Positions 22,092 through 41,704 of a stretch of DNA of 41,704 nucleotides are shown piece after piece (the first letter of the stretch is position 1; every line of letters begins with the position of its first letter). Under the pieces are notes generated by a model. The model worked only from the letters and a program-made list of their open reading frames with translations, was not told the DNA's origin and made no database searches. This stretch comes from a bacterium (lineage in GTDB: Bacteria; Ratteibacteria; UBA8468; B48-G9; JAFGKM01), in NCBI GenBank assembly GCA_029548585.1, contig JAKPNC010000143.1, forward strand, positions 1 through 41,704, in the 5' to 3' direction. The translations under genes were made by a program, and so were the position numbers.

Positions 22092-22229
22092 ATTTCCTCC
22101 GCTGTTGTTTGACCTGCCGTCGTGATGTAAGTCTTCCTCTCCCCGTTGGGCATATTTTGGCTGACAATTCAGTTTCAACGATGCCATTGCAGGCATTGCC
22201 ATATTTGCTTTTCCTGCCGGGGCAAGAAT

Positions 22230-23370: not shown

Positions 23371-23383
23371 CTTTTTCTCCTCC

Positions 23384-24229: not shown

Positions 24230-24324
24230 TTTTTTCTCCGTTTTGGGACTTTCACGTGAAGCGTCCAACCATGTATGTTATCACATAAATCCTTCCCGAT
24301 ACAGAGAGGGGACTGAATGGAAAA

Positions 24325-24353
24325 TTGACTCCGGCCTCTGGAAAACTTATAAT
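24325..24353 (+). promoter_or_regulatory. Near-consensus sigma70-type promoter of the tol-pal cluster
   Basis: TTGACT-N17-TATAAT matches 11 of 12 consensus positions. The -10 element ends 7 nt before the tolQ ATG at 24361. Confidence 0.6.
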
Positions 24354-24360
24354 AATCACC

Positions 24361-24963: not shown

Positions 24964-24996
24964 AGAGAGAGACATTGTCTCGCCGGGGAGGAAAAA

Positions 24997-25401: not shown

Positions 25402-26108
25402 GGAAGCAGAGCCTTGGAATAACTTTGTTTTTACACTGCGCGGGGCTTCTGGCGCTTACAGTAAACCCGTGGAAAAAAGCGAATCCCTCCCTGATGCAGG
25501 TTTTCGACATCCAGCTTGTCAGCATTCCCCTTTCCATCCCCTCCGTTCCGGAAGCTGCGGGGAAGCCCGAGGAGATACCCTCAAAAAGAGAAACCCCGGG
25601 CAGGCAGGGGAACCAATCTTCCGCAGGGCCGGCGCGCAGGGCAGAACCCTCCCCGGGAAAGGCCGGGGAAACGGACTCTTTTGCAAGCGCCTCTTTCAGG
25701 GAAAGGCTTGCTTCCAGGATCCGCACCTCCGGACAGCCCGCAAGCCGGAAGGATCCCGTTGAGAGAGAACCGGTTGGCATCAAAAGGATAGAAAGGCCCA
25801 TTCCGGAATTAAATCTTCCCGACACGGGCGGAGGCATACCCGAATGGTATCTTTCTCTCGTCCAGTCCAGGATAAGGGAAAACTGGATCCTGCCGGCCAT
25901 GCCGGGAAGAAGGTCGGCCACGGTCTCCTTCAGGATTTACTCCACAGGACGGATTGCCAACGTCTCTCTTGAACTTGCGTCCGGGAACGCCGGTTTTGAC
26001 AGGTCTGTGATGGATGCTCTCAAGTCCGCGGGAGGGCTCCCTGTGTTTCCTGCCGGGATAAGACAACCTCATCTTGACATAATCATGGAGTTTAACACGG
26101 AGGGATGA
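25359..26108 (+). CDS. TolA/TonB-like energy-transducer protein
   Basis: It has an N-terminal TM helix (LGITLFLHCAGLLALTV), a Pro/Glu/Ser/Arg-rich linker, and a TonB_C-like end (YLSLVQSRIRENW...VSFRIYSTGRIANVSLELASGNAGFDRSVMDALK). The only canonical start overlaps tolR by 43 nt. Confidence 0.65.
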   Translation: MRNRENWTCHPGRIRKQSLGITLFLHCAGLLALTVNPWKKANPSLMQVFDIQLVSIPLSIPSVPEAAGKPEEIPSKRETPGRQGNQSSAGPARRAEPSPGKAGETDSFASASFRERLASRIRTSGQPASRKDPVEREPVGIKRIERPIPELNLPDTGGGIPEWYLSLVQSRIRENWILPAMPGRRSATVSFRIYSTGRIANVSLELASGNAGFDRSVMDALKSAGGLPVFPAGIRQPHLDIIMEFNTEG

Positions 26109-26109
26109 A

Positions 26110-27342
26110 ATGAAAAGAATCTCTGTTATAACTGCTTTATTTTCTTTCTTTATCGCCAGCCTCCATGCCTCTGATCCCATATTTCTAAGGATAACCAGGG
26201 ATCTCAGGGAAAAGGTGGAGATATCGGTTCTTCTTTCGGCCCCGAAGGATGCTTACTGGGAAGATTTCCTCAAGACGGTCTCGGGAGACCTCGATTATTC
26301 CGGATACTTTTCCGTGACCGGTTCGGTTTTTACAGACAACTTTTCAACCGCAAGACAGGAATACAAAGGCCGCCTGGCCATGATTGCAGAAAAGACAGGA
26401 GAAGGACTGGGCATAAGGGTTGAGGGAGATCCCGGCGGAAAGGCCCTCTTTGAAAAAAAATACCCGTATCCCGGGCCGTCCGGACCCCGGGGGCTTGCAC
26501 ACGCTGTCTGCAATGACCTGGTCTTTAACCTGACAGGAAAGCCAGGGATAGCGGGAAGCCGTATACTTTTTGTCTCTGACCGGACGGGGAATTACCAGCT
26601 TTACCAGGTAGAATACGATGGAGAAAATCTCAAGAGGCTCACCGATGCGAAATATATGGTACACTATCCCAGGTGGCTCTATCCCGGCAAAGAACTTCTT
26701 TTCGTTTCATACAAAGGCGGATGGCCTAAACTTGCCCGGAAGAAGATCCCTTCCGGAGAGGAGCGGGTGATACTTTCACATCCGGGATTAAACGCGTGCG
26801 CTTCTCCATGCCTCAAGACGGGAGAACTGGCCGTTGTCTTAAGCCACGAGGGAGGGCCCGAGATATACATTACCGACTTTGACGGCAGGATCCTGAAAAG
26901 GGTGACACGCAACCGTGCCACGGATGCCTCTCCTTCTTTTTCCCCGTGCGGGAAAATGATCTCCTTCGTATCTGACATGCACGGAAGCGCACAGGTTTAT
27001 ATCATGACAAGGGAAGGCACGAGGATCCGGAGAATAAGCTACCTTTCCGGGTATTCCACGTCTCCGGCGTGGTCTCCTGACGGAAATTTGATCGCATACG
27101 TTTTTTTGAGAGGAGGAAGCTACGGCATTGCAGTCTACGAGGTTTCCACGGGGGAGACAAGGGTCGTGGCCGGGGCGGCGGGAAGCGAAGACGTTTCATG
27201 GGCGCCGGACAGCAGGCACCTTGTCTATTCGGACATCAGCCGAAAGCCGGGGTCTGTGACAGTGCTCGACGCGGTAACGGGTGAAAAGAGGAAACTTACC
27301 GGCGGCAGCGGCAACTCTTTCAGCCCGGGCTGGGGCGGCTGA
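26110..27342 (+). CDS. tolB: Tol-Pal system beta-propeller protein TolB
   Basis: 410 aa with a signal peptide. Repeated propeller blades carry SPxxSPDGxxIAYV-type motifs (SPSFSPCGKMISFVS, SPAWSPDGNLIAYV, DVSWAPDSRHLVYS). Confidence 0.85.
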   Translation: MKRISVITALFSFFIASLHASDPIFLRITRDLREKVEISVLLSAPKDAYWEDFLKTVSGDLDYSGYFSVTGSVFTDNFSTARQEYKGRLAMIAEKTGEGLGIRVEGDPGGKALFEKKYPYPGPSGPRGLAHAVCNDLVFNLTGKPGIAGSRILFVSDRTGNYQLYQVEYDGENLKRLTDAKYMVHYPRWLYPGKELLFVSYKGGWPKLARKKIPSGEERVILSHPGLNACASPCLKTGELAVVLSHEGGPEIYITDFDGRILKRVTRNRATDASPSFSPCGKMISFVSDMHGSAQVYIMTREGTRIRRISYLSGYSTSPAWSPDGNLIAYVFLRGGSYGIAVYEVSTGETRVVAGAAGSEDVSWAPDSRHLVYSDISRKPGSVTVLDAVTGEKRKLTGGSGNSFSPGWGG

Positions 27343-27370
27343 TTGACAAAAATGGCCGGTGATGTATAAT
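27343..27370 (+). promoter_or_regulatory. Consensus internal promoter upstream of pal
   Basis: TTGACA-N16-TATAAT has both hexamers perfect and begins 1 nt after the tolB stop. The leader to pal is about 36 nt and contains a GGAGGG SD. Confidence 0.6.
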
Positions 27371-27412
27371 TGAAAAAGGCGTTCGTACATTAAAACACGA
27401 CAGGAGGGTAAT

Positions 27413-28081
27413 ATGAGAAATTATATGCTTTTAACACTCTGCGCCATGCTTGTTGTCTTTGCGGGTTGCCAGTCAACGCGCAAAGATAACGGCAAGTTCC
27501 TGAAGAACGGGAAGGATGCAACCGGAGAAGGCGGATCCTCTGCCCTTTCCATATTCTCCCAGGATCTGCAGCCTTTGAACCAGGGAGGTTCAGCGGACGC
27601 TTCCCAGCCTTCTGCCGTAAGCCCTGATGCCGGAAAGGCAACTCCTTACGAGGCGCTCCAGGCAACGGAAGGAAAGGAGATCCCTCTCCATCCGATCCCG
27701 GAGGGCAAGGTCTTCAAATCCCCTTCCGAGATAAGCCCGGAACTGGCGGCCATATTTTCGAATATCCATTTTGAATATGACAGTTACGAAGTAAGAAGCG
27801 CAGACGTGCCTTTTATCAGCGCCATGGGTAAGCACCTGCTGGAAAATCCATCCATGGAGGTTCGCATAGAAGGCCACTGCGATGAAAGGGGGACCAGGGA
27901 ATATAACCTTGTTCTCGGAGAACAGAGGTCCCTCAGCGCCAGGAGGTTTCTCGTTGGCCTGGGAGTTTCCCCCAGCAGGCTGCACACTGTCAGCTACGGC
28001 AAGGATAAGCCTGCAGATACGCGCAGCAACGAGGAGGCCTGGTTTAAAAACAGGAGAGCTGAATTCAAGATAGCGGAGTAA
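27413..28081 (+). CDS. pal: Peptidoglycan-associated lipoprotein Pal (OmpA-family C-terminal domain)
   Basis: The lipobox is VVFAGC. The OmpA-like domain reads IHFEYDSYEVRS...IEGHCDERGTREYNLVLGEQRSLSARRFL...NRRAEFKI. Confidence 0.9.
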   Translation: MRNYMLLTLCAMLVVFAGCQSTRKDNGKFLKNGKDATGEGGSSALSIFSQDLQPLNQGGSADASQPSAVSPDAGKATPYEALQATEGKEIPLHPIPEGKVFKSPSEISPELAAIFSNIHFEYDSYEVRSADVPFISAMGKHLLENPSMEVRIEGHCDERGTREYNLVLGEQRSLSARRFLVGLGVSPSRLHTVSYGKDKPADTRSNEEAWFKNRRAEFKIAE

Positions 28082-28083
28082 AC

Positions 28084-28992
28084 ATGGAACGCAAATTACT
28101 GGTTCTCTTCTCTTTTGGCTGCATGCTCGCCCTTTTTTCAGGCTGTGAAACCATAGCAACCCAGGGCGATCTTGGAGAGATGGATAAAAAGGTTTCCGGG
28201 CTGCAGGATGATTTCTACGCGACTTCAAAGGCCATATCGGAACGTTTCAAGGCGCTGGAATCAAACACGGATTCGAAGTTCGCCTCCGTTGAATCCGGCA
28301 GGAATGCCCTTTCCGAGAGGACGGACAGGTTGTCGGCGAATGTAGAAAACCTCGTGAAGGAAAAGACCGTTCTTGAGTCCCGGATATCGTCCATAGACGA
28401 GGAGATAAGGAAAATTCATGGAAAGGTCGACGAGCTTGATTACAAGTTTTCCGAGGAGATGAAAAAGGAGAAGACATCCGCCCAGCAGGAAGGTTTTGAG
28501 ATTCGCCGGGACATGGAAGGCATCAGGAAGACTTACAATGACATAATATCATCCATAGCTTCCCTCGGCAAGAACCTCTCCGCCATCCAGAACGATCTTC
28601 TCGCCGTCAACCAGTCCCAGGTAAAGCTCGGCGAGTCCGTCAACAGGATCTCATCGGAGATGGAAAGGAATTCTGCGAGGGTCGATTCCCTGGAGGAGTC
28701 CCATTCGAGGAATATACAGGTATTGATAGACGAGATTACCAGGCAGGAGAGCGAGATCTTCAGGCTTAAGAATGAATTCAAAAACAGGGCCGTGGAAACG
28801 CAGCCTGCAGGGAGCGTGAAAGCCGTGGAAACCCCTGCGGCCTCCCGGGAAAAAAAATATTATACTGTCAGGAAAGGAGATTCCCTCGGTTCTGTCGCAG
28901 GAAGGTTTAATACAACGGTCAGGGCTGTCAGGGAAGCCAATAAGCTCAGGAATGACAACCTCTCCATCGGGCAGAAGCTTCTCATCCCATAA
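28084..28992 (+). CDS. Coiled-coil lipoprotein with C-terminal LysM domain (occupies the cpoB/ybgF position)
   Basis: The lipobox is ALFSGC. About 230 aa of heptad-like charged helix follow. The C-terminal YYTVRKGDSLGSVAGRFNTTVRAVREANKLRNDNLSIGQKLLIP is a canonical LysM domain. Confidence 0.7.
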   Translation: MERKLLVLFSFGCMLALFSGCETIATQGDLGEMDKKVSGLQDDFYATSKAISERFKALESNTDSKFASVESGRNALSERTDRLSANVENLVKEKTVLESRISSIDEEIRKIHGKVDELDYKFSEEMKKEKTSAQQEGFEIRRDMEGIRKTYNDIISSIASLGKNLSAIQNDLLAVNQSQVKLGESVNRISSEMERNSARVDSLEESHSRNIQVLIDEITRQESEIFRLKNEFKNRAVETQPAGSVKAVETPAASREKKYYTVRKGDSLGSVAGRFNTTVRAVREANKLRNDNLSIGQKLLIP

Positions 28993-30146: not shown

Positions 30147-30240
30147 CTTGCCTCCAGGGTTGGAAAGACGGGATAAAAGTCAAAAAGATTGAAATTTCGG
30201 GCAAAAAACGCAGGTTTGCATTAAAAAAAGAATGTTGAAG

Positions 30241-30312
30241 CGCCCCCAAGGGGATTCGAACCCCTCCTGCCACCTTGAAAGAGTGGTGACCTAACCAATA
30301 GTCGATGGGGGC
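30241..30312 (-). tRNA. tRNA-Glu (anticodon TTC)
   Basis: The minus strand reads GCCCCCA/TC/GACT.../CCACT-CTTTCAA-GGTGG/.../AGGGG-TTCGAAT-CCCCT/TGGGGGC/G. The anticodon loop is CTTTCAA, giving UUC. The discriminator is G and no CCA is encoded. Confidence 0.9.
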
Positions 30313-30353
30313 GGGAATATCGTTATTTGTGAATGATGATCACACAAGTAAAG

Positions 30354-30382
30354 ATTATACAATTTCCCCGGGTTATTGTCAA
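30354..30382 (-). promoter_or_regulatory. Perfect consensus sigma70 promoter driving tRNA-Glu
   Basis: The minus strand reads TTGACA-ATAACCCGGGGAAATTG (17 nt)-TATAAT. The predicted transcription start is about 35 nt upstream of the mature tRNA 5' end. Confidence 0.75.
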
Positions 30383-30732
30383 TCAATAGTCATGAGATTG
30401 GAAATTCTCCCATAAGAAAGGCATTCCGCCCGTATACCCGTCCTTCCCTGCCCTGAAGTTACAGCAGGCAAATTTTGCGGGTGGCCGGGGGGCTCTCTTA
30501 TTTGTCATCCCGGGAAGTCTCTGCCCATGGTTTATCGTGTTGAGATTCTGAACAGAAACATTTCAGAATGACATCTTTGAAGGCGTTCTTCAATGAGCGA
30601 TTATATCATCCGGAAGAAAAACCGCCTTTCTGCAAGACTCCGGTTTGCATGCAACGGGGAGGGAAGTAAGGGGAGGTGATGCGAAGCGGTATTCCCTTCA
30701 TCCCATTAATCTTTCCACATAAAGAGCCCTTA

Positions 30733-30760
30733 TGGACAAAAAACTTATAAATGATACAAT
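30733..30760 (+). promoter_or_regulatory. Promoter-like element (extended -10) for the 30.8-41.7 kb operon
   Basis: TGGACA-N16-TACAAT with TG one nt upstream of the -10 (TGaTACAAT). A GGAGGA SD lies 5 nt before the ATG at 30793. Confidence 0.4.
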
Positions 30761-30792
30761 ATTGGAAGCAGTTACAAACTGCGGAGGATCTC

Positions 30793-31797
30793 ATGAAAAG
30801 GTCTCTGAGTCTTGTTGCCGTCCTCTTTTTTGTGTCTGCTTTCAGCGCGCATCCCCATCTCTGCGATAACGTTTTCAGACAGGCCGACTCGCTTATAGTG
30901 AAACCTGAAACCTATACGCTGGTGGTAAAGGAAAGTACGACTTTCAAAGTATTTCTTCAAAACAACATGGACAGGGGAATCGCTGAAATCAGCCTCATCC
31001 CCGAAAGTTCTTCCTTCGATTTTTCAGTTACTCCCCAGAAAATGTCCATTCCAAAAGGCCGGCAGGTTTATTTCCAGGTTACCCTTTCTCCAAGGCCGGG
31101 GATCAGATCCGGAAATTACGAGATAAAGTTCCGGCTGGTTGGCGGCGGCAGGGAATTCAAGGCATTCACCCTTGACAGCCTTGCCCAGGAAGCCGGGGCA
31201 AAAAAGGAATCCATTCCTGATACTTCAAAGCTTTCGCAGGTTCGGCGCTCCAATGGCGCGCCGGCTATAGACGGCAATCTTAACGATCCGGTATGGAAAA
31301 ACGCCGCAGTTCTGTCAAGGTTTATTTCCTCAACCGGAGCCGAACCTTCTTATCCTACCTGGGCTCTCATGTCGTTTGACAGGGATAACCTGTACCTGGG
31401 AGTTTTCTGCAGGGATGAGGATACGGGAAAATTGTCTCCGCGGGACAGAATAGACATTATCCTTTCTTCGGAGAGCGGCGGGATGTCAGGTTTTCTCCTC
31501 TCCTTTCCGTATGCGGGCGCCGCAAAATGCCAGAAGTATGGCAGGGAGAATAAGGCTGCAGCGTGGAACCTTCCCGGAATGAAGTATTCTATCATGAAAA
31601 AGGATAAGAACTGGTCGCTGGAAATATCCGTTCCTTTTTCTGATTTGAATACTTTGGCGCCGATGCTAAAGTCTGTCTGGAATGTCAGAATTAACCGGTA
31701 CAAAGAAAGCGGTTTGAAGGAAAAAAGTTTCTGGGCGATGGATTCGTCAGGCTACCACAACGAGAAAAAACTCGGCATGGTCGTCATGTATCCTTAA
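30793..31797 (+). CDS. Exported protein: N-terminal Ig-like domain plus CBM9/DOMON-like C-terminal domain
   Basis: I chose the internal start MKRSLSLVAVLFFVSAFSA (signal peptide) because it has an SD. The C-terminal half has APAIDGNLNDPVWKNAAVLSRF and WSLEISVPFSDL...WNVRINRY, as in carbohydrate-binding family 9-like domains. Confidence 0.5.
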   Translation: MKRSLSLVAVLFFVSAFSAHPHLCDNVFRQADSLIVKPETYTLVVKESTTFKVFLQNNMDRGIAEISLIPESSSFDFSVTPQKMSIPKGRQVYFQVTLSPRPGIRSGNYEIKFRLVGGGREFKAFTLDSLAQEAGAKKESIPDTSKLSQVRRSNGAPAIDGNLNDPVWKNAAVLSRFISSTGAEPSYPTWALMSFDRDNLYLGVFCRDEDTGKLSPRDRIDIILSSESGGMSGFLLSFPYAGAAKCQKYGRENKAAAWNLPGMKYSIMKKDKNWSLEISVPFSDLNTLAPMLKSVWNVRINRYKESGLKEKSFWAMDSSGYHNEKKLGMVVMYP

Positions 31798-31815
31798 AAT
31801 AAACAGCAACTCACA

Positions 31816-32355
31816 ATGAAGAATATAATATTCACAATACTTGTTTCTCTATTTCTTCTTTGTGCGAACGCAGAAGAAAACCGTTTTGTGATTGAATTCG
31901 AGTATCCTCAATTTAAGGGCGATTTCTATGTTTCAGGACGGGTTTCCTTCCCTCCCGGAGCCGTGCTCTCCGATAAAAACTTTTCCGTGCACGATTCCCT
32001 GACGCAGGAAGAAATCCCTGTCATGGTGGAGATCAGCGAAAAATGGCCCGACGGTTCCATTCTCGATGCTTCTGTCCATTTTGCGGCTAACTCCTCAAGG
32101 AGAAAGGATTACGTTCTTTCTTACGGCGAGGGCGTGAACAGAAGCAGGTCTTTCACTCAGGTTTCCACCCTGCCCATAGTAACGGCTTCCATAGGGAATT
32201 CTCCGAGAACGGAAGAGTCTCTTGACATGGAAGTCGGCCAGCTTATCGTCAAAGTTGACAGGAGTGTCGATTTTCGATACTACTGGTATCTTCTTCCCAT
32301 GTTTGGACTGCTTTTTCTTGCGGTATGCCGTGCAAGGAGAAATTCAAAATCATGA
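31816..32355 (+). CDS. Hypothetical exported protein with C-terminal TM anchor and basic tail
   Basis: 179 aa. The signal peptide is MKNIIFTILVSLFLLCANA. The C-terminus is YYWYLLPMFGLLFLAVC-RARRNSKS. There is no recognisable SD, and its stop overlaps the next start (ATGA). Confidence 0.45.
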   Translation: MKNIIFTILVSLFLLCANAEENRFVIEFEYPQFKGDFYVSGRVSFPPGAVLSDKNFSVHDSLTQEEIPVMVEISEKWPDGSILDASVHFAANSSRRKDYVLSYGEGVNRSRSFTQVSTLPIVTASIGNSPRTEESLDMEVGQLIVKVDRSVDFRYYWYLLPMFGLLFLAVCRARRNSKS

Positions 32356-33380
32356 ATAAGAGGAGAATCACGTTTTTAAGAAGAACGGTTCAGATTCTTT
32401 GTCTTGTCATGCTTGTATACGGCGGATATATCTTCAAGGTAAAACATCATACCACCCAGCAGGCCAATCTCTTTCCGGCATTAAAAGCGCCCGAAGGCTA
32501 TATCTCCACGACGAAATTTGACCGGGGCTCCATACTATGGCCTTCCGGGGATAATCCGGTTCTGGAAAACTATCCCCCCGGGCTTGTCTGCCGTTTCAAT
32601 CCGAGAGGGGGGCTTTTCAAAGCCTGCATAGTCCATTTCATTTCAGAAAACCTCACCTGGCGGACTTCTTTCAAATATCTCCTTCCACATCTCACTCTTT
32701 TTATGCTCTTATGCTTTCTCTTTGGAAGGCTATGGTGCAGATGGGCGTGCCCAATAGGCACGGTGGGAGATTTTCTGACGATGCTCAGGAAAAAAATGAA
32801 TATTCCCTCAAGGAAATTTCCAGCCGGTTTCAGAAACGGCCTAAGGTCCGGCTCATACTGTATTCTCGGCACAAGTTTTTTTATTTCCGCCCTGATAGGC
32901 GTGCCTCATCTTGCAAGGTTCCAGTGCTACTGGTTCCTTCCTTACTGCCAGATCTGCCCCGCAAGGCTTATCTGCCCGATTTTCGGATTAATAAAGCCGG
33001 GATGGAAAGATTTTGAAACAGCCATTACAACCATGTTTACAATACTTGCCTGGCTTGTTCTGGGTATTTTTGTGGCGGCTTTCTACTGGGGAAGAAGAAT
33101 ATGGTGCCATCTTTGTCCTGTCGGACTCATGAATTCGTGGTTTAACAGGGGAGCGGGAGTCGAACTGAAAAAGATTTCCGTGAAGTGCAATAAATGCGGA
33201 TTGTGCACGGAGGCCTGTCCCATGGGTCTTACAGAGATGTTTGAGAAGAAGACCGACGGAGTTTTCAACCAGAGCGGATGTATCATGTGCCTCAGGTGCG
33301 TCGAAATATGCCCGAGAGACGGATGCCTTTCAGCGAACTTTTTCGGAAGGAAAATAGTTGAATCGAGGCTGAAAAAATGA
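32352..33380 (+). CDS. NapH/MauN-type integral-membrane polyferredoxin (4Fe-4S binding protein)
   Basis: It has several TM helices, two membrane-proximal CX3CP motifs (CRWACPIGT, WCHLCPVG) and two C-terminal ferredoxin motifs (CNKCGLCTEACP, CIMCLRCVEICP). Confidence 0.75.
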   Translation: MNKRRITFLRRTVQILCLVMLVYGGYIFKVKHHTTQQANLFPALKAPEGYISTTKFDRGSILWPSGDNPVLENYPPGLVCRFNPRGGLFKACIVHFISENLTWRTSFKYLLPHLTLFMLLCFLFGRLWCRWACPIGTVGDFLTMLRKKMNIPSRKFPAGFRNGLRSGSYCILGTSFFISALIGVPHLARFQCYWFLPYCQICPARLICPIFGLIKPGWKDFETAITTMFTILAWLVLGIFVAAFYWGRRIWCHLCPVGLMNSWFNRGAGVELKKISVKCNKCGLCTEACPMGLTEMFEKKTDGVFNQSGCIMCLRCVEICPRDGCLSANFFGRKIVESRLKK

Positions 33381-34621
33381 AAAACAAGGAATATCTCAGA
33401 GAAGATTACGCAAAGACTTTGAAATTCTTTTCAAAGGGGAAAGACTCTCCTGAAATTCCCGGAAATTCAGAAGCCATTGAAAAGTACAGAAAACTATCCG
33501 GGCTCAAAGAAACGGATTTTTTTTACGATGCTTTCCTGAAAGCAAAGAGTACTATTCCTGAAAAGGAAAAGAAACCCGTGGCGGGGTATTTCTGCAATAC
33601 CGTTCCGGAAGAACTCCTTCTTGCATGCGGGGTGCATCCTGTACGCCTTTGCAGCGCTGACAGCCATTGCGCAGAATGCGGTGAAGAAGCTATTCCCGGA
33701 GATATCTGTCCCATGGTCAAAGCGGCCTGCGGTGATTTCTTCCATGATTTTAACCGGATGATGGACCTTTTGATTATTCCTGCAACGTGCGACGGACGCG
33801 TAAAGCTTGCCGAAATACTGAGCCCCGTTGCAAAAGATATATATTTTATCGATATCCCGAGAAACACCGATTATCTTGAAAACGTCAATATATGGGAGAA
33901 AGAATATACGAAGTTTTTCGATTACCTGAAGTCAAAGTTCAAAGTGAAACCTGCAAGGAGAGAGATTCTCGACGCCTGCGTCCAAACCAATGAAAGAACT
34001 CGAATGTACAGGAAGATATATGAAGCAAGGGCGAAAAAACCTGGGATCATGAACGCCTTTGATTATTTCATAATGGCCAATTCTTCTTTCTTCCTTTCTC
34101 CGGCGGAATGGACCGAAAAAGCCTCTCTTCTGTACAGAGAAATCAGCGGAAGAGAGCAGGAGCCAGGAAGAAAAAAAATCCTCCTTGCGGGTTCGCCGGT
34201 AGTTTTTCCCAACTTCAAGATTCTCGATATCCTCGGGGATGCCGGATGCTGCGTTTCCGCCGACGTAGTATGTTCCGCATACGGAAGGCTTTACGATCCC
34301 GTCGAGATAGACGAGGAAACGGAGTCGGGAATCATCAGGGCTCTCTCTCTGAAATATGTAGCTCCCAGTATATGCCCATGCTTTGTGGGTATTGACAAGC
34401 TTATCAACACGGTGCTTGATTCCGTTGAAAGGTATGGACTTGATGGCGTTATATATTACAATATAAGGTTGTGCCAGGTGTTTGAAATGGCATCAGGCGT
34501 TTTGAGAAGCGTTCTCAAGGATAGGGACATCCCTTTCCTTTTCCTGAAAACCGATTTCAGCAAAGAGGATACGGGACAGCTTAAAACAAGGGTAGAAGCT
34601 TTCATGGAAATGCTGGGGTAA
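33377..34621 (+). CDS. 2-hydroxyacyl-CoA dehydratase (HGD-D) family Fe-S protein, single-subunit, double-cubane-cluster-protein-like
   Basis: 414 aa. YFCNTVPEELLLACGVHPVRL is the family N-terminal signature. At least 14 Cys are present. No second homologous subunit lies adjacent. An ATGA overlap joins it to the NapH-like gene. Confidence 0.7.
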   Translation: MKNKEYLREDYAKTLKFFSKGKDSPEIPGNSEAIEKYRKLSGLKETDFFYDAFLKAKSTIPEKEKKPVAGYFCNTVPEELLLACGVHPVRLCSADSHCAECGEEAIPGDICPMVKAACGDFFHDFNRMMDLLIIPATCDGRVKLAEILSPVAKDIYFIDIPRNTDYLENVNIWEKEYTKFFDYLKSKFKVKPARREILDACVQTNERTRMYRKIYEARAKKPGIMNAFDYFIMANSSFFLSPAEWTEKASLLYREISGREQEPGRKKILLAGSPVVFPNFKILDILGDAGCCVSADVVCSAYGRLYDPVEIDEETESGIIRALSLKYVAPSICPCFVGIDKLINTVLDSVERYGLDGVIYYNIRLCQVFEMASGVLRSVLKDRDIPFLFLKTDFSKEDTGQLKTRVEAFMEMLG

Positions 34622-34623
34622 AT

Positions 34624-35391
34624 ATGGAAATATACGCGGGAATAGACATCGGTTCCGTAACGACAAAATGCGTTATACTGCAGGGGAAAAGCATTATTGG
34701 CAAGGCCCTCGTCAAAACCGGCATTGATACCGAAAAATGCGCAAACGACGTTCTGGACATGGCTGCGGGGGATGCCGGCATTAAGGTTGAAGAAATACAA
34801 AGGATGGTTTCCACAGGTTACGGCAGAAGGATTTTCAGGAGGGCGGACAGGATAATAACCGAGATATCCGCAGCTGCCGCGGGCGGTTATATATTGTGCG
34901 GGGAGAAAGCAACCCTTATTATCGATGTGGGAGGCCAGGATACAAAAGTCATTGAGGTTAACGGCAAAGGGGAAGTGCTTGACTTTCTCATGAATGACAA
35001 ATGCGCCGCCGGAACGGGCAGGTTCCTCGAGATCATGTCTCATGTTTTCGAAACCGATATCCAGGGTTTTTCTCAACTGGCCATTGGTTCCGAATCTCCC
35101 GTGGCAATAAATTCCACGTGCAGCGTTTTCGCGGAAAGCGAGGTCGTTTCTCTCATAGCTTCTTCCGCAAGAAAAGAGGATATAGCCGCCGGACTTTTCA
35201 GGTCAATTGCATCGAGAGTCGCGGGCATGGTCAGGCAGTTCCGGCGTTATGAACTGACAGTATTTTGCGGAGGCGGCGCAAAGAGCCAGGCATTAAAAGG
35301 TTTTATAGAAAAGGCGATCGAGAGACCCCTGATTGTTCTGCAGGAACCCCAGTTTGTAGTGGCATATGGTGCGGCATGCCTTGCCCGGTAA
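34624..35391 (+). CDS. BcrAD/BadFG (HgdC-like) ATPase, activator of HGD-D family enzymes
   Basis: 255 aa. It has the ASKHA phosphate-1 motif GIDIGSVTTKCV and the two cluster-bridging Cys contexts NDKCAAGTGRFLE and NSTCSVFAESE. Confidence 0.85.
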   Translation: MEIYAGIDIGSVTTKCVILQGKSIIGKALVKTGIDTEKCANDVLDMAAGDAGIKVEEIQRMVSTGYGRRIFRRADRIITEISAAAAGGYILCGEKATLIIDVGGQDTKVIEVNGKGEVLDFLMNDKCAAGTGRFLEIMSHVFETDIQGFSQLAIGSESPVAINSTCSVFAESEVVSLIASSARKEDIAAGLFRSIASRVAGMVRQFRRYELTVFCGGGAKSQALKGFIEKAIERPLIVLQEPQFVVAYGAACLAR

Positions 35392-35445
35392 GAACTTCTT
35401 GCGCAATTTGGCAGCAGAAATTTACCCAACTTTCAAGGAGAAAAA

Positions 35446-37044
35446 ATGGAAAAGTTCAGCGTCAACGGGTGCATGGGAGAGGGCGCTTACGGTTCTCCGG
35501 ATTTTCCGGAGCCGTCCCATCTTGTCAGTCACATGGATTATCTCGGCGTGGACCGCTGCCTGGTATGGTACAGGCAGGCGCTGGATTTCAACCCTGTTTA
35601 CGGCAACAGGAAACTTCTTAATATAATCTCATCAAAAGATGAATATTCAAAGAGACTTATCCCAGCCTTCGTTATCACTCCTTCCAATTTCTATGAATAC
35701 GGCGCTATTTCATTTTTGATGAAATCCTTTGAAAAAGGAGTATTGCGCGCGCTCAGGATATTTCCCTGTACCTCGAGGTTTGAAATGAGGACCCTGGAAA
35801 GGATTCTTGCGGCAGTAAGCGATTACGGTCCTGTTGTTTTGTGGAGTACCAGGGATACAAACGGTCCGGCTGATTACCAGGGGTTCATCGAACTGGCAGT
35901 AAAATTCCCAGGGATTAAATTCATCCTTACCGAAGCCATGTGGGGCAACTTTAACAGTTGCGTGGATGCAATGTGGCGCGCGGAGAACATTTCCATAGAG
36001 ACTTCATGGCTTCACATGAGGGATACGATAGAATTGCTGAGGGATGAGTTCGGGCTTGAAAGGGTGCTTTTCGGCATGGGATTCAAGTCTCATTACGGGG
36101 CTTCCATCTCTGCCATTGAACATGCAAATATAACGGAAAGCGAGAGGAGCCTCATATACCACGGGAATATAGAGAAGATGCTGGGCCTGGAGCCCGTTGA
36201 GGAAAAGCTTTCCAAAGAGCCTCCCATTCTTGCAGAAAAACCCCTGTGGAAGGATTTAAGCAGGGGCCTGCCGCTCAAAGATATCGAGGTTATAGATGCC
36301 CATGCCCACACGGGGCCGACAACCAGGGGTTGGATACGGAGAGACATTGATATGAAGGAGAATGTGTCCAACATGGTTAAGAAGATGGATGAATGCGGGG
36401 TTTCCATGTCAATCGTGGCTCCGGAAATCAGCCTCTTTTCAGAGCCTGTGTCGGCCAATTCCGAGATAGAGGAAATAATGTTCAAACATCCCGGACGCTT
36501 CAGGGGATACCTTGTTTTCAACCCTCTTTATAAAGACAGGCTTATTCCTCTTCTGGACGATTATTTTCAAAGAGGCTTCTTTATAGGATTCAAGATACTT
36601 GCGGCTTACTGGAAAATCCCCATGGATGACAAGAGATACATCCCTGTCTGGGAATATGCGGACAAAAAGAAGATACCCATACTGATTCATACATGGGGAG
36701 GCGGCGATATTCGAATTATTGAAAACATATCTTCATTTTACAAAAGGGCGGTCTTTCTTCTCGGTCATTCCGGAGGCGGAGGAGGAAGGAAAGAAGCGGT
36801 TGAACTGGCGGTTAAGAACGAAAACGTCTTTCTTGAATTCTGCGGGAGTTTTACAACCCAGGACGATTGGCTCGATGCCATCAGAATGGCGGGAATAGGA
36901 AAGGTGGTATTCGGAAGCGACGCGGAAGGACACGACCTGGCGTGGGAACTTGGAAGGTTTCTTTCCATCCCCCTGCCTGACAGGGAACTTGCGCCCGCGC
37001 TTGCGGATAATTTCAAAAAAATAATGAAGGGAATAAAAATATAG
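35446..37044 (+). CDS. Tandem amidohydrolase-2 (metal-dependent TIM-barrel hydrolase) protein
   Basis: 532 aa in two similar halves. The second half has the metal-ligand pattern VIDAHAHTG ... LIHTWG ... LLGHSG ... FGSDAEGHD. The first half lacks the HxH motif. Confidence 0.55.
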   Translation: MEKFSVNGCMGEGAYGSPDFPEPSHLVSHMDYLGVDRCLVWYRQALDFNPVYGNRKLLNIISSKDEYSKRLIPAFVITPSNFYEYGAISFLMKSFEKGVLRALRIFPCTSRFEMRTLERILAAVSDYGPVVLWSTRDTNGPADYQGFIELAVKFPGIKFILTEAMWGNFNSCVDAMWRAENISIETSWLHMRDTIELLRDEFGLERVLFGMGFKSHYGASISAIEHANITESERSLIYHGNIEKMLGLEPVEEKLSKEPPILAEKPLWKDLSRGLPLKDIEVIDAHAHTGPTTRGWIRRDIDMKENVSNMVKKMDECGVSMSIVAPEISLFSEPVSANSEIEEIMFKHPGRFRGYLVFNPLYKDRLIPLLDDYFQRGFFIGFKILAAYWKIPMDDKRYIPVWEYADKKKIPILIHTWGGGDIRIIENISSFYKRAVFLLGHSGGGGGRKEAVELAVKNENVFLEFCGSFTTQDDWLDAIRMAGIGKVVFGSDAEGHDLAWELGRFLSIPLPDRELAPALADNFKKIMKGIKI

Positions 37045-37072
37045 TCTTTACAGGGAGACTGGAGAAAAAGAT

Positions 37073-39685
37073 ATGAAAGTCAAAATAAAAATTTTATGGG
37101 AAAAAGCTCCTGGCAAAGGGGTTGTGGAAGTTATACGCGGGAAACTTGATTTTCTTATTATTGCCGGAGGCAAAGGTTCGTGCAGGCAAGGTTCCTTTAA
37201 TTTTGAATCCGGGACGGGAATCCTGGAAGCGGTTATATCGGAAGCAAATATTGAAGCAGGGGCTTTTCCCACTATAGTGAGGGTAAGGACAAAAACCGAT
37301 TCTTTTTCATTCTTCCTCAGGGATGCCCTGGATTCTGAAAATCCTGTCTGGATACCGGAATACGGCGTTGCCCTTCTTCCGCAGGCAGACAATCGTTCCT
37401 ACCAGGAGGTCTCACGGGACATCGAAAACAGGAAAATCATGTCGGATTATTCAAGGTTTGAGAATGAGCCTGAAGAAACTTTTGAAAAGGCCGCTTCAGG
37501 GAACAGGCAGCAGTATGCGCCCACCTGGCTGGGAATATCGAGGGACATGAGGATATTTCGTTTCGGTTACCAGGAAAAAGTTGGGTTATTCGGGAAAGTA
37601 TCTTCCTGCTATCTTGCCCATAAAACCAAACTGTGGCCCCAGGACCTCCTTTTTGCGATCGGGCAGGGGGCTTCCTGCCGATACGATATAACCAGGCGTC
37701 TTGATGAAGGATGTCTTCCCATACTTAAAGCCGTGCAGAAGGAAAAATTCATGCAATACCACGTAACCGCTTTTGCTTCCCTTGAAAAGGGCATTCTAAA
37801 GAAAGACAGGGTAAGTGGAACGGACTGGCTCGCTTCCTATGCCAATTCCGGAGGGCAGATGCTCGGAGAAGCCGGCAGGGAAAAAATAAAGGAGTTTCTT
37901 GAGAAGGAGATGTACGGGAGGGAAGAAGAGGTTGTCTTGTGTTGCAGGGTGGATGCAGTCAATACAGGAAAAACACCATGTTATGCATGGTTTAAGAACC
38001 CATATTTCCGGATAGAAAAAGATATAGAGGGAATTTCTTTTGACGCTGAGAGCGGGTTCACTTTCTTTGAAAACAAAATACTCTCTCTGACACTTTTTAA
38101 CGGCAAACCACTGCCCCAGCAAGAAATGGCGATTCTTTTGCCTCCCGGAGAAAAGGCGGTTTTTGACATGTTTATACCTCATTCGCCTTTGCCCAAAAAA
38201 AGGGGAGGCAACTTATCGAAACTTGATTTTGACGCCCATTTAAAGGGAGCCCGCGATTACTGGAAAGGGAAACTTGAAAGCTCGGCGTCTTTCAGCATCC
38301 CCGAGAAAAAGATAGATGAGGCGGTAAAAGCGGGGCTTCTTCACTGCGACATCGTTGCCCTCGGAAAAGAGCCGGATGAACCGGTTGCGCCCCATATCGG
38401 ATGGTACAGTCCCATAGGCACCGAGAGCGCTCCCATCATCCAGTATTTTGATTCCGTTGGATGGCACAAGCTCGCGGAGCGTTCAATCCAGTTCTTTTTT
38501 GAAAGGCAGCAGGAAAGCGGTTTCATGCAGAACTTCGGACGTTACGAAAGCGAAACCGGTCCCGTGCTATGGACCATAGGGGAGCACTTCAGGCACACGG
38601 GCGACGAGAAGTGGCTTAAAAGGTCGTTCCCGAAGATAAAAAAGGCGGTTGACTACATACTGAAGTGGAGGGAAAAAAACAAGAAGGAGGAATACAGGAA
38701 GAAAGGCTTTTACGGCATGGTTGACGGCAAGGTTGCCGATCCCAATGATTATTATCACTCCTTTTTCCTTAATGCCGGCAGTTACATCGGGCTGAAAAGG
38801 ATAGCGGAGATAACTGAAAAGATTGAGCCTGCATACTCTTCCCTGTTGAAGGCCGAAGTTGAAAAATATCTTCAGGATATCAGGAGCGGTTTCTACTATG
38901 CCATGTCAAACGCGCCCGTTGTGCCCGTGGGAGACGGTTCATGGGCTCCTTTTACGCCTCCATGGGTGGAACAGAACGGCAACATCATACTTTATGCAGA
39001 CGGAGGCAACTGGTTTTCTCACGGCGCCTTTGCTGTCAGGGGAGTGACTACCGGGCCCCTGTGGCTTATAATAAGCGAGGTTCTTTCTCCCGAAGAGATC
39101 GGTTCCCGTTTTATCCTCAAGGTTAACCAGTTTCCCGTAACCCTCGAAAATGCGGCATTAAGCCAGCCTTATTACTCGAGGCACGATTTTGCCCACATCA
39201 AAAGGGGCGAAGTCAAAGCATTTCTCAAATGCTATTACAACCAGATGACCGCCCTCATGGACAGGGAGACATACACCTTCTGGGAACATTATTTCGAGGC
39301 AGGACAGCACAAGACGCATGAAGAAGCCTGGTTTCTCATGCAGACGAGATGGATGCTTTATCTTGAAGATGGAAACAGCCTTAACCTTTTTTCCGCCATA
39401 CCCGGAAGATGGCTTGAGAATGGAAAAGAGATAAAAGTTCAAAATGCTTCAAGTTACTTTGGCAGAATATCTTTTGGAGCCCTTTCGGAACTTGAAGAGA
39501 AAAGCGCAATAACGGCTTATTTTGAATGCAGGGGCAGGAAGAAACCCGAAAAAGTCGTGATAAGAATTCCTCATCCTGAAGGCAGAAAACCGGTAAAGGT
39601 GGAAGGCGGTTTATACCGTGAGGAGACAGAAACTGTTGAAGTGAAAAATTTCAAAGGCAGGTGTTGCGTGAAACTTTTCTACTGA
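37073..39685 (+). CDS. Large cytoplasmic protein with (alpha/alpha)6-barrel glycosidase-like region
   Basis: 870 aa with no signal peptide. The region WHKLAERSIQFFFERQQESGFMQNFGRYESETGPVLWTIGEHFRHTGDEKWLKRSFPKIKKAVDYI resembles six-hairpin glycoside hydrolases. The family was not identified. Confidence 0.4.
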   Translation: MKVKIKILWEKAPGKGVVEVIRGKLDFLIIAGGKGSCRQGSFNFESGTGILEAVISEANIEAGAFPTIVRVRTKTDSFSFFLRDALDSENPVWIPEYGVALLPQADNRSYQEVSRDIENRKIMSDYSRFENEPEETFEKAASGNRQQYAPTWLGISRDMRIFRFGYQEKVGLFGKVSSCYLAHKTKLWPQDLLFAIGQGASCRYDITRRLDEGCLPILKAVQKEKFMQYHVTAFASLEKGILKKDRVSGTDWLASYANSGGQMLGEAGREKIKEFLEKEMYGREEEVVLCCRVDAVNTGKTPCYAWFKNPYFRIEKDIEGISFDAESGFTFFENKILSLTLFNGKPLPQQEMAILLPPGEKAVFDMFIPHSPLPKKRGGNLSKLDFDAHLKGARDYWKGKLESSASFSIPEKKIDEAVKAGLLHCDIVALGKEPDEPVAPHIGWYSPIGTESAPIIQYFDSVGWHKLAERSIQFFFERQQESGFMQNFGRYESETGPVLWTIGEHFRHTGDEKWLKRSFPKIKKAVDYILKWREKNKKEEYRKKGFYGMVDGKVADPNDYYHSFFLNAGSYIGLKRIAEITEKIEPAYSSLLKAEVEKYLQDIRSGFYYAMSNAPVVPVGDGSWAPFTPPWVEQNGNIILYADGGNWFSHGAFAVRGVTTGPLWLIISEVLSPEEIGSRFILKVNQFPVTLENAALSQPYYSRHDFAHIKRGEVKAFLKCYYNQMTALMDRETYTFWEHYFEAGQHKTHEEAWFLMQTRWMLYLEDGNSLNLFSAIPGRWLENGKEIKVQNASSYFGRISFGALSELEEKSAITAYFECRGRKKPEKVVIRIPHPEGRKPVKVEGGLYREETETVEVKNFKGRCCVKLFY

Positions 39686-39698
39686 CAGGAGAGAAGAG

Positions 39699-41704
39699 AT
39701 GAAAATATTAAGATACATTATGATTTTGTTAATGACGATTGCTTTCAGCGTATCGGCAGAGAGTCCCGGCTACCAGGAATGGCGGAAGAGAAGGGAATCC
39801 CTCATCAATGATAAAAATGTTGAAAGGTATTACACCTTTGAAGATGTTGAAGGCAGTAAAAGCATCGTCAGGGATTTGAGCGGCAAAGGGGGCGACCTTA
39901 AATTCGTTCCATATACGGACAGGCAGACGAAAGAAGTTTTTGACGATTTGAAAATAATAGAAGGAAGATGGCCTGAAAAGAAGGCGGTAAGGCTTGACCG
40001 CGGTTTTTACCAGGGGCCTACTTACAACATTGAAAACAAGCAGTTTACCGTCGAAGCATGGTTCCGCAGGCAGGGACCCGGGAGCATCCTGGCCGCGAGC
40101 AGGAACAGGGACGGACACATAATGTCGGTTTCGGGATACAGGGAGGGCTGGCGCATCTATACGTCATACGACCCCGTTTCGGGTATCGTTCTTGGCATAG
40201 GCAAACAGGGAGGCTGCAACATAAGAACGGAAGCCGCAATGCCTGACAACGCGTGGCACCATATTTCTTTCACATGGGACGGAAGGATTATAAATCTTTA
40301 CCTGAACGGCAAACTTATATCTTCCAACGTGTTTGAAGAAGAATATATACCCGTGAAACATGCCAACTTTTTCAAGATAGGATTTTCGGAGCTTGGGGTT
40401 GGTTCCATTGTAATGGATATAGACGAGGTTGTCATATATAACAGGGTATTGAGCGGAAAAGAGATAGAGAAACTCAGCCGGGGCCCTTTGAACGAGTCTG
40501 AAAAAGACATTTTTGCCGCTGCCGACGCTTTCATCAAAGACGGCAATTACGGGGCAGCCCGCGCCCAATATGAGAAGCTTAAAAGCCTGCCCGTATACGG
40601 TCTGCCGCTGGCGCTTTTCAACACTGCCGAAAGTTACCGGCTGGAAAAGGATTATGAAGGCGCTCACAGGATATACGGTCAGATAATGAAGATGGAGAAT
40701 CTTACCGCCTATTACCGTATATATGGGCTATTCAGGCAGGCTGAGTTATGCCTTGAGCAGAAAAATCATGAAGGCGCGCGCCGTCTTTACAATCAGGTGA
40801 TAAAAACTGAAGGCGCGCTCAAACACCATATTTTCAATGCCCGCCTTTTCACCGCAGATACATATAAGGCCGGGCTCATCTACAGCAGGGCAAGACCTTT
40901 ATACGAGGAACTTCTGAGGGAAGAAGAATCAGCTTCCTTTCCCAACGACGGGTACCGTCTTGATGTGCGCGACAGGCTGGAAGCCATAGAAGGCCTTGCC
41001 GACGGAACCGTCATTAAAAGCTCAAGTCAGAAAAGGCTTGAGCGGGTGAACGGTCCGGGATATGCCGTTTATGTTTCAACCCTGGGCAGCGATTCCGATC
41101 CAGGCACGAAAGAAAAACCTTTTGCAACATTCAAAAGGGCGCAGGAAGAGGTAAGGAGAGTAAAGTCGAAAGGTATGCCTGAAGGCGGAATAGTTGTATA
41201 TCTGAGGGGCGGAAACTATTTTCTAACTGACGGGATTGTTTTCGGAAAAGATGATTCCGGAACGGAAAAAGGCCCGGTTGTCTACCGGAATTATCCGGGT
41301 GAAGAGGCAAGGCTTATAGGTGGAAGACAGGTAAGCAATTTCAAACTGCTTGATGACCCCGGCATCCTGAAAAGATTGGCCGGAGAAGCAAAAGGGAAAG
41401 TTTGGGTTGCCGACCTGAAAGAAGCCGGCATAACCGAATACGGCCGGCTTTTGCCCCGGGGACGGCATGTCAGGAAGTCGCGTCCCGGCGCTCTTGAGCT
41501 CATATGCGACGGGAAAATCATGAGGCTTGCGAGATGGCCCAACGAAGGATGGGAAAGGGTGGCCGGATTGACCGTTGTTGAAGGGGTCTCAAGAAAGACC
41601 GAGTACCAGAGAGGCAAATTTGTTTACTCTGGCGACAGGCCTGAGAGATGGAAGGAAGAGAAAGATATGTGGGTGAAGGGTTATCTCGGGGTGAATCAGC
41701 CTTA
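39699..41704 (+). CDS. Exported LamG - TPR - right-handed beta-helix protein (3' end outside the window)
   Basis: This ORF is absent from the supplied track because no stop occurs before the window edge. I translated it by hand and found it open for 668 codons. It has a signal peptide (MKILRYIMILLMTIAFSVSA), a LamG-like core (WHHISFTWDGRIINLYLNGKL...IDEVVIYNRVLS) and TPR-like helices. A beta-helix N-cap motif follows (YVSTLGSDSDPGTKEKPFATFKRAQ...VYLRGGNYFL). Confidence 0.65.
   Translation, partial: MKILRYIMILLMTIAFSVSAESPGYQEWRKRRESLINDKNVERYYTFEDVEGSKSIVRDLSGKGGDLKFVPYTDRQTKEVFDDLKIIEGRWPEKKAVRLDRGFYQGPTYNIENKQFTVEAWFRRQGPGSILAASRNRDGHIMSVSGYREGWRIYTSYDPVSGIVLGIGKQGGCNIRTEAAMPDNAWHHISFTWDGRIINLYLNGKLISSNVFEEEYIPVKHANFFKIGFSELGVGSIVMDIDEVVIYNRVLSGKEIEKLSRGPLNESEKDIFAAADAFIKDGNYGAARAQYEKLKSLPVYGLPLALFNTAESYRLEKDYEGAHRIYGQIMKMENLTAYYRIYGLFRQAELCLEQKNHEGARRLYNQVIKTEGALKHHIFNARLFTADTYKAGLIYSRARPLYEELLREEESASFPNDGYRLDVRDRLEAIEGLADGTVIKSSSQKRLERVNGPGYAVYVSTLGSDSDPGTKEKPFATFKRAQEEVRRVKSKGMPEGGIVVYLRGGNYFLTDGIVFGKDDSGTEKGPVVYRNYPGEEARLIGGRQVSNFKLLDDPGILKRLAGEAKGKVWVADLKEAGITEYGRLLPRGRHVRKSRPGALELICDGKIMRLARWPNEGWERVAGLTVVEGVSRKTEYQRGKFVYSGDRPERWKEEKDMWVKGYLGVNQP

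Follow-up and report, generated by a model that had tools for sequence, protein, structure and literature searches.

The double-cubane cluster proteins (DCCPs) carry an [8Fe-9S] double cubane that an activator drives to very low potential using ATP (PMC7317905, PMC9351452), and in vitro they reduce acetylene, hydrazine and azide at that cluster (PMC7317905, PMC11971306). Recent primary papers call the natural function of DCCPs unknown and treat them as soluble two-component systems (PMC11971306, PMC7317905). In BzdN, the [8Fe-9S] cluster is a cofactor of electron transfer and storage (PMC11971306). A different group, the NapH-like proteins, consists of modular transmembrane electron-transfer devices, which link electrons of the cytoplasm or the membrane with redox partners outside the cytoplasm (PMC8238504). 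Here, we describe a locus at which these two kinds of protein meet: a cassette of five genes, O1 to O5, near the end of a stretch of 41,704 nucleotides (nt) from a 'Ratteibacteria' genome (contig JAKPNC010000143.1, assembly GCA_029548585.1). This whole stretch is called the window below.

The kernel of the cassette, a DCCP/activator pair tied to a NapH-like membrane protein and to exported partners, is real and conserved. A preliminary description, made from the sequence alone, had pointed to the same association (a lone HGD-D protein and its activator linked to a NapH-like protein and exported proteins) and had taken it to be undescribed; the association turns out to be conserved in many genomes, and full-text literature searches turned up no publication in which NapH-like proteins are connected with double-cubane, HGD-D or archerase proteins. 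The parts are of known kinds, and it is the combination of NapH-like protein and DCCP that is apparently undescribed. The five genes are the following.

30793 to 31797, + strand: O1, exported two-domain protein (the longest open reading frame runs from 30751)
31816 to 32355, + strand: O2, signal peptide, small beta-sandwich and C-terminal transmembrane anchor
32352 to 33380, + strand: O3, NapH-like membrane polyferredoxin
33377 to 34621, + strand: O4, DCCP homologue with a predicted [8Fe-9S] cluster
34624 to 35391, + strand: O5, archerase-type ATPase activator (HgdC / HadI / DCCP-R family)

The cassette and its redox core

The genomic contexts of O4 relatives were collected, and all loci were scored for homologues of O1 to O5 and of the three genes that follow them in the window, O6 to O8. 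The close O4 subfamily, defined by at least 45% identity, comprises 18 loci from Omnitrophota, 'Ratteibacteria' and unclassified metagenome-assembled genomes (MAGs). In these loci, O1, O2 and O3 adjoin O4 wherever the contig permits, and O5 is nearly always next. The complete order O1-O2-O3-O4-O5 recurs in Omnitrophota-type MAG contigs with different flanks each time, and even rearranged loci keep the association, one of them reading O4-O1-O2-O3 (L006) and another O1-O2-O3-gyrB-gyrA-O4 (L007).

The association also reaches far beyond this subfamily. A NapH-like gene lies no more than 3 kb away in 58 of the 80 genome loci that hold the nearest DCCP relatives; these 58 include loci from Bathyarchaeia, Pacearchaeota, Nanoarchaeia, Endomicrobia and Fibrobacterota, and the core extends to DPANN and Patescibacteria. 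The constant core is the NapH-like protein, the DCCP and the activator; some extracytoplasmic partner is always nearby, of an identity that varies from group to group. There are 19 clear exceptions, seven of them from Firmicutes, the group of the studied soluble DCCPs, in which the DCCP loci have no NapH-like gene. The link of the SAO selenoprotein locus to DCCPs was set aside, that context being a different one of the Firmicutes type.

The assignment of O4 begins with the HGD-D family (PF06050), which it matches at 257 bits. Its best matches in the PDB are the DCCP structures 7YYL and 6ENO, with E-values of 1e-46 for the single sequence and 1e-67 with a profile, as against 1e-16 or weaker for HadC, BzdN and MbdN. 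The criterion for a DCCP is the motif CX19CX18-19CX29CX166-170CX32-34CX32C, in which six of the seven cysteines ligate the [8Fe-9S] cluster. In O4 the seven cysteines are C73, C92, C111, C138, C299, C333 and C366; they align to the DCCP cysteines and are invariant in 32 members of the O4 subfamily, at spacings that lie 1-9 residues off the published motif. Given matches of this kind and a complete 7-Cys motif, O4 can be classed, as far as its sequence goes, as a DCCP-type protein and not as a dehydratase subunit. Its score on the DCCP model NF040772 (247 bits) falls below the cutoff of 350, and O4 would therefore represent a divergent clade. A second HGD-D gene, which would encode the paralogous subunit of a dehydratase or benzoyl-CoA reductase, is found neither in the cassette nor in the whole window, and the related loci likewise have a single HGD-D gene.

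Two further cysteines of O4 deserve a remark. C201 (codon at 33977-33979) is invariant in the 32-member NapH-linked subfamily and is replaced by another residue in the solved DCCP, and is thus specific to the subfamily. C335 is also invariant; it aligns to the second cysteine of the CxC pair of DCCP itself, and so is common to DCCP.

The partner of O4 looks conventional. O5 scores 232.8 bits on TIGR00241 (cutoff 125.4), matches BcrAD_BadFG as well, and finds HadI (4eht, 1.7e-53) and DCCP-R (7yyl_E, 8e-48) in the PDB, with both cluster Cys motifs aligned. These matches identify it, at the level of sequence, as a canonical archerase activator.

O3 contains two Fer4_5 motifs and a dicluster ferredoxin domain (Fer4_7/Fer4_10) according to Pfam, and hydropathy places its helices at residues 12-30, 107-125, 170-188 and 224-242. 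The distribution of positive charges puts the N-terminus and the second loop in the cytoplasm, and both termini are inside; with this topology, both Cys-Pro motifs and the ferredoxin domain face the cytoplasm, the side of O4 and O5. O3 thus has the structural features of NapH, namely four helices, two Cys-Pro motifs and a C-terminal 2x[4Fe-4S] domain. Its Cys-Pro motifs are of the form CX2-3CP, the second being CX2CP (WCHLCP) and not CX3CP, and its scores on the NapH models TIGR02163 and NF007013 (66.8 and 76.6 bits) lie well under the cutoffs of 213 and 234. The window holds no nap, mau or nos genes, and O3 has no NapG/NapAB or Mau partner. The name 'NapH-like', and nothing more specific, would seem to fit it.

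The outer face of O3 is distinctive. It bears a 75-residue loop with a Cys pair (CRFNPxGGxFKAC) and a CQxCP motif before helix 4, and the bacterial versions keep these features, as do those of Patescibacteria and DPANN and some of the archaeal ones. A loop Cys pair combined with a CxxC near a helix end is the thiol-disulfide relay arrangement of DsbB and VKOR, which the outer cysteines of O3 resemble by analogy.

Perhaps O4 and O5 act on a membrane lipid or polyprenyl, like PlsA and Ger, with O3 as the membrane interface. Enzymes of the HGD-D and BcrAD type do turn ester into ether bonds in membrane lipids (PMC13159169), and O4 always adjoins an integral membrane protein. However, O4 has neither DUF2229 nor the fused multi-domain architecture of PlsA/Ger and carries the DCCP 7-Cys motif instead. 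It is also difficult to see in such a scheme what the conserved exported partners and the outer-face cysteines would be for, and archaea, in which the module is common, have ether lipids already. We consider a lipid-modifying role quite improbable.

Exported partners

O1 consists of a signal peptide, an N-terminal Ig-like beta-sandwich and a C-terminal domain of the CBM9/DOMON fold. In an alignment of 41 homologues, the most conserved parts are the invariant sequence HLCDNVFRQ right after the signal peptide and a QNNMDR loop. In 37 of 40 homologues the histidine comes right after A, G, S or C, and the residue at -3 is small or aliphatic; because of this small preceding residue, mature O1 is predicted to start with the histidine as residue 1, and hence with a His-x-Cys motif.

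A structural model of O1 made with AlphaFold2 (AF2) from the 41-sequence alignment has a predicted local distance difference test score (pLDDT) of 88. In Foldseek searches, the best fold matches of its C-terminal domain are CBM9 structures (1i82, E 5.5e-8, target-normalized TM-score 0.63; 7nwo, 1.5e-7), followed by the haem b subunits EBDH gamma of ethylbenzene dehydrogenase (2ivf_C) and NxrC (7b04_C). On the Pfam CBM9 model (PF06452), the domain scores 17 bits, below the threshold of 23.4. It is fused to the Ig-like His-x-Cys domain and not to an enzyme, and several tryptophans (W182, W288 and W328) are invariant in the homologues. Haem binding by this domain, which would call for axial ligands of the Met/Lys or Met/His kind, was considered and rejected, since the alignment shows no conserved or nearly conserved Met, Lys or His there.

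How much of O1 belongs to the core function? Distant O1-like proteins are encoded beside the DCCP module in an Endomicrobia MAG, in Omnitrophica UBA2593 and in a Patescibacteria MAG. In these proteins the motif (AHLCHDPFRP, SHVCDDVLRQ) and the sandwich are retained, the chain terminates in a transmembrane anchor, and the CBM9 domain is missing. The core function thus does not include glycan binding, which is an accessory of a single lineage.

O2 has a signal peptide and a C-terminal helix at residues 154-178, and its AF2 model reaches a pLDDT of 72. It has no Pfam or NCBIfam match. Attempts to identify its fold returned only generic immunoglobulin-like PDB matches with E above 0.4, and a lenient Pfam scan gave noise-level matches to PcRGLX_1st and B12-binding_2, which were discarded. 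In the close subfamily, O2 always lies between O1 and O3, and it is found only where O1 has no anchor of its own; from this distribution we read it as a novel family that probably serves as a membrane tether or adaptor for O1. Most of the family assignments in the preliminary description were borne out by these analyses: the signal peptide and C-terminal anchor of O2, the NapH-type polyferredoxin character of O3 (if below the cutoffs of the NapH models), the HGD-D membership of O4 and the BcrAD/BadFG nature of O5. The CBM9/DOMON-like call for O1 stands at the level of fold, through structure prediction and Foldseek, but not by its sequence score.

The exported partners differ among the groups that share the core. 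Where the close subfamily has O1 and O2, Endomicrobia, UBA2593 and Patescibacteria have the anchored His-x-Cys sandwich. The Bathyarchaeia version, seen in about 35 loci (within L024-L086; for example L041, 5803-13145), has six components: a 740-aa CARDB surface protein, a DsbD_2 membrane protein, the NapH-like protein, the DCCP, two activators and a 98-aa 2x[4Fe-4S] ferredoxin. Homology of this archaeal surface protein to O1 or O2 was rejected, with hhalign probabilities below 3%.

Some of these loci carry additional genes. Radical SAM proteins with hydrophobic or lipoprotein-like N-terminal leaders flank the DCCP module in UBA2593, which has three paralogues (L020, 6047-7063, 10779-11861 and 14700-15773), and in the Endomicrobia MAG (L019, 269-583). 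The UBA2593 locus (L020) also has three extra activator-like genes upstream.

Two modules on one strand

In the window, eight + strand open reading frames run from 30751 to the window end, and the preliminary description took them for a single operon and a single system. The features that bear on this question are the following.

30240 to 30312, - strand: tRNA-Glu(UUC), found by ARAGORN and Rfam; left boundary of a variable spot
30733 to 30760, + strand: sigma-70-like promoter candidate upstream of O1, TGGACA-16-TACAAT with extended TG, 10/12 matches
35446 to 37044, + strand: O6, tandem Amidohydro_2 protein; separate module
37073 to 39685, + strand: O7, 870-aa cytoplasmic protein of a large uncharacterised family; separate module
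39699 to 41704, + strand: O8, exported LamG-TPR-beta-helix protein, truncated at the window end; separate module

The packing itself is as had been described. Read base by base, the junctions have gaps of 18 nt (O1/O2), 2 nt (O4/O5, the activator beginning just after the O4 stop codon), 54 nt (O5/O6), 27 nt (O6/O7) and 13 nt (O7/O8), with ATGA start/stop overlaps at 32352-32355 (O2/O3) and 33377-33380 (O3/O4), and no gap between O1 and O8 contains a terminator-like hairpin. The promoter-like element proposed at 30733-30760 does exist, but such sites are common in the region (22, against 12.8 +/- 3.4 in shuffled sequences), so that taken alone it counts for little. A GGAGG at 30783-30787 stands ahead of the ATG at 30793, and all O1 homologues start at the residues matching MKRSL, which makes 30793, and not 30751, the most likely start of O1 and would place the promoter-like site upstream of the gene and not over its start codon. 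With Rfam, two tRNAs were the only finds, and the 480-nt leader gave no riboswitch.

Comparison with other genomes divides the eight genes into two independent units, O1-O5 and O6-O8. The gene order that recurs in relatives is that of the first five genes, and it does not extend to the other three: O6-O8 occur in none of the 18 close-subfamily O4 loci, and none of 80 metagenome loci around O7 homologues contains O3, O4 or O5. O6 and O7 form a pair of their own in five unrelated metagenome contigs (L089, L094, L109, L115 and L168), where the cassette is missing, and in two of the 80 O7 loci (L089 and L091) O8 comes after O7.

The closest relatives locate the boundary precisely. In L089 and L091, whose O7 proteins are 85% and 75% identical to that of the window, the upstream genes are those of the window (TolB, Pal, a LysM protein, a minus-strand alcohol dehydrogenase (ADH) and tRNA-Glu) and so are the downstream genes, (O6)-O7-O8; O1-O5 are missing from both despite these common flanks. 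Nucleotide homology between the window and L089 stops at 30313, at the end of the tRNA-Glu, and restarts at 35435, about 10 nt before O6; homology with L091 likewise stops at 30313. From the matching flanks without O1-O5 and the sharp breakpoints it follows that O1-O5 are a self-contained cassette, in a discrete segment of 5.1 kb (about 30314-35434) at a variable site beside a tRNA. The same tRNA-Glu flanks the spot in L089, L091 and L008, and the contents of the spot vary: the O1-O5 cassette in the window and in L008, an epimerase gene in L089, and nothing in L091. The cassette of L008 is separated from the tRNA by rhamnose-biosynthesis genes on the minus strand. A mobile-element signature was sought and discounted, with no meaningful direct or inverted repeats flanking the cassette.

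The tRNA-Glu(UUC) is itself preceded by a perfect sigma-70 consensus, TTGACA-17-TATAAT, at 30382-30354 (- strand). Further upstream lies a Tol-Pal-like cluster (24325-28992, + strand), with genes for a MotA/TolQ-type protein, a TonB_2/TolA-like protein, TolB (PD40), Pal (OmpA) and a coiled-coil LysM protein, which is syntenic in L008, L089 and L091. Such a cluster points to a diderm envelope, which would place O1, O2 and O8 in the periplasm or at the cell surface.

In the preliminary description, the eight genes were joined into one trans-envelope system for glycan capture (O1, O8), hydrolysis or deacylation (O6, O7) and an ATP-dependent reductive or radical step (O4, O5). In its favor, the eight genes follow each other closely on one strand without an intervening terminator and could form a single transcript here; the CBM9 fold of O1 and the LamG and beta-helix domains of O8 also fit it. 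Nevertheless, the mutual absence of the two units from each other's loci, the relatives at 75-85% identity that keep the flanks but not the cassette, the lack of CBM9 in distant O1-like proteins and the failure to establish a glycosidase fold for O7 (see below) have largely refuted it, and we regard it as very improbable. What can reasonably be retained is the idea of a trans-envelope redox system; its glycan capture, hydrolysis and reduction lost their support with the absence of CBM9 from the distant O1-like proteins and the identification of O4 as a DCCP. One point does weigh against a strict separation: the 54-nt O5/O6 gap has no terminator, and O5 and O6 may be co-transcribed. Read-through from O5 to O6 may occur in this genome, but would be incidental.

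One lineage seemed to offer a link between O7 and the cassette. In two Thermoproteota MAGs, an O7 homologue (831 bits) comes directly after the archaeal NapH-DCCP-activator module (L065, 8099-8620; L066, 8178-10847, - strand). This was judged coincidental, as it concerns a single lineage, lies on the opposite strand and has no counterpart in the 80 O7 loci.

O6-O8 are an unrelated neighboring module, probably for carbohydrate-type processing. Pfam finds the two Amidohydro_2 stretches expected in O6, and in O8 the LamG, TPR and beta-helix domains that had been proposed; the full-length O8 homologue of L089, at 1399 aa, has LamG, TPR, Beta_helix and GH141_M. The six-hairpin glycosidase call for O7 fared less well. 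The O7 family numbers 1643 representatives at E up to 0.001 and has no Pfam model, and the six-hairpin hints are sub-threshold (E 0.002-0.5) and all fall over residues about 490-550, with weak matches to GH65 (E 0.21-0.41), YgjK (0.53) and also GH63. A profile of 22 homologues compared with PDB sequences, and Pfam scans of its individual members, likewise stayed sub-threshold (GH95_cat in 2 of 22 at 0.0016, GtaA_6_Hairpin in 1 of 22 at 0.0017), and the fold is considered not established.

Elsewhere in the window, a run of genes with the look of sugar metabolism (6018-9500, + strand) encodes a xylose-isomerase-like TIM barrel, a GFO/IDH/MocA oxidoreductase and an L-fucose-isomerase-C-domain protein, and is followed by a 636-aa open reading frame (9523-11433) with no Pfam match. 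Two adjoining open reading frames of 352 and 294 aa (22312-24268, - strand) also have no Pfam match; beside them, at 19671-22202, are a DegT-type aminotransferase and a zinc ADH.

Direction of electron flow and comparison with known systems

What could a DCCP do next to a membrane polyferredoxin? O1-O5 may encode a membrane-coupled double-cubane-cluster reductase that works outwards, a proposal to which we assign an even chance. In the first step, an O5 homodimer would take an electron from a ferredoxin-type donor and, driven by ATP hydrolysis, pass it to the [8Fe-9S] cluster of O4, which would thereby reach a very low potential; for DCCP and DCCP-R, this reaction is established. O4 would then dock on the cytoplasmic 2x[4Fe-4S] domain of O3, with the double cubane as a relay and store, as in BzdN, and not as the final catalytic site. 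O3 would carry the electron across the membrane, where its outer cysteines (the loop-1 pair and CQxCP), the His-x-Cys of O1 and the anchored O2 would make up a thiol- or metal-based acceptor site that reduces an extracytoplasmic substrate or cofactor. In the archaeal clusters, the dedicated ferredoxin would be the donor for the activators, which favors the NapH-like protein as the acceptor.

Alternatively, O4 may be the terminal reductase of a small cytoplasmic or membrane-permeant molecule and O3 either an anchor or the donor to O5/O4. As a donor, O3 would draw on a membrane pool or on an extracytoplasmic donor captured by O1/O2, and electrons would flow inward. Such a role would agree with the reduction of acetylene, hydrazine and azide at the cluster of DCCP (PMC7317905, PMC11971306) and with the statement that NapH-like systems run 'to reductases or from oxidases' (PMC8238504). 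The bacterial cassette, moreover, encodes no separate ferredoxin, and the ferredoxin domain of O3 could feed O5. In the archaeal clusters, however, the ferredoxin encoded beside the activators makes a NapH-type donor redundant, and by our own reasoning an inward transfer would oppose the membrane potential. The presence of the module in Patescibacteria and DPANN, which to our knowledge are generally without quinones, also argues against a quinol-dehydrogenase role. A terminal role of O4 is in our judgment unlikely, though a serious contender.

Several considerations weigh against the outward reductase as well. The docking of O4 on O3, the direction of the electrons, the chemistry at the outer face and the substrate are all inferred, and in the characterised DCCP the cluster is a catalytic site for small molecules (PMC7317905). 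The rearranged loci L006 and L007 have no adjacent activator. The commonest Bathyarchaeia NapH-like proteins, of about 326 aa, have no outer cysteines, so that the chemistry at the outer face must differ within the family. In the O1 model, the N-terminal motif has a pLDDT below 50, and no metal-binding or thiol-oxidoreductase family matches O1 or O2. Finally, the reduction of disulfides or of common metals needs no ATP-boosted potential, and the need for an archerase is unexplained.

A still broader proposal would extend the outward scheme to the entire DCCP clade of Omnitrophota, Endomicrobia, Patescibacteria, DPANN and Bathyarchaeia. These DCCPs would be the engine of an ATP-boosted transmembrane reductase, which exports electrons of sub-ferredoxin potential through the NapH-like polyferredoxin to an extracytoplasmic thiol/metal site, built in bacteria around a protein with a mature N-terminal His-x-Cys. 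We put this forward tentatively, as possible but rather doubtful in its full extent. If the transmembrane reductase is real, it would give DCCPs their first physiological context and would stand for a new class of low-potential redox chemistry, located outside the cytosol, in organisms largely without respiratory chains.

Whatever the direction, a large and phylogenetically broad clade of DCCPs is genetically tied to a membrane polyferredoxin and to exported proteins, and it is at the membrane or the cell exterior that its function should be looked for. The occurrence of the module in Patescibacteria, DPANN and Omnitrophota, with their reduced genomes, suggests a function that those cells cannot dispense with, and the compact five-gene cassette is an expressible, testable unit. 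There is a more general lesson in the locus, too: tight packing on one strand made two unrelated modules resemble one operon, and it was comparative synteny that split them.

Among described systems, O3 is closest to the proteins of the NapH/NosH/NosR/PceC type, with which it shares four helices, two Fer4_5 Cys-Pro motifs and a cytoplasmic dicluster ferredoxin domain. It differs from them in its 75-residue outer Cys-pair loop and outer CQxCP, and in its company, the cassette having no NapG/NapAB, NosZ or RdhA partner, no FMN-binding domain and no ApbE gene. NapH-like modules are known with quinol and flavin partners; the cytoplasmic partner proposed for O3 is an ATP-driven low-potential reductase and not quinol, and an archerase would be a new kind of input. 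The cupric reductase CcoG/FixG also combines a NapH-like polyferredoxin core with an outer Ig-like beta-sandwich, in a metal-ion reduction role, but its sandwich is fused to the core and it has no ATPase or DCCP partner. No CcoG model is among the best 25 NCBIfam matches of O3, and O1 and O2 have no FixG_C match.

For the cytoplasmic half of the cassette, PlsA/Ger show that HGD-D and BcrAD activator domains can act at the membrane under anoxia (PMC13159169). Their domains are fused as BcrAD-BcrAD-DUF2229(-HGD-D) and have no NapH-like partner, whereas O4 and O5 are separate single-domain proteins without DUF2229. In the class I benzoyl-CoA reductase BzdNOPQ, an archerase feeds an [8Fe-9S] double cubane and then a second Fe-S site (PMC11971306), and this electron path is a precedent for the relay role proposed for O4. 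BzdNOPQ is a soluble heterotetramer with a catalytic subunit, BzdO, that binds benzoyl-CoA; the cassette, in contrast, has one HGD-D gene and no CoA-ester genes. The nearest system of all is DCCP/DCCP-R of Carboxydothermus hydrogenoformans (CHY_0487/0488; 6ENO, 7YYL), which, like O4 and O5, pairs a single HGD-D gene containing the complete 7-Cys motif with a one-gene activator downstream. That DCCP, however, is a soluble two-gene system, while the O4 clade is encoded together with a NapH-like membrane protein and exported partners.

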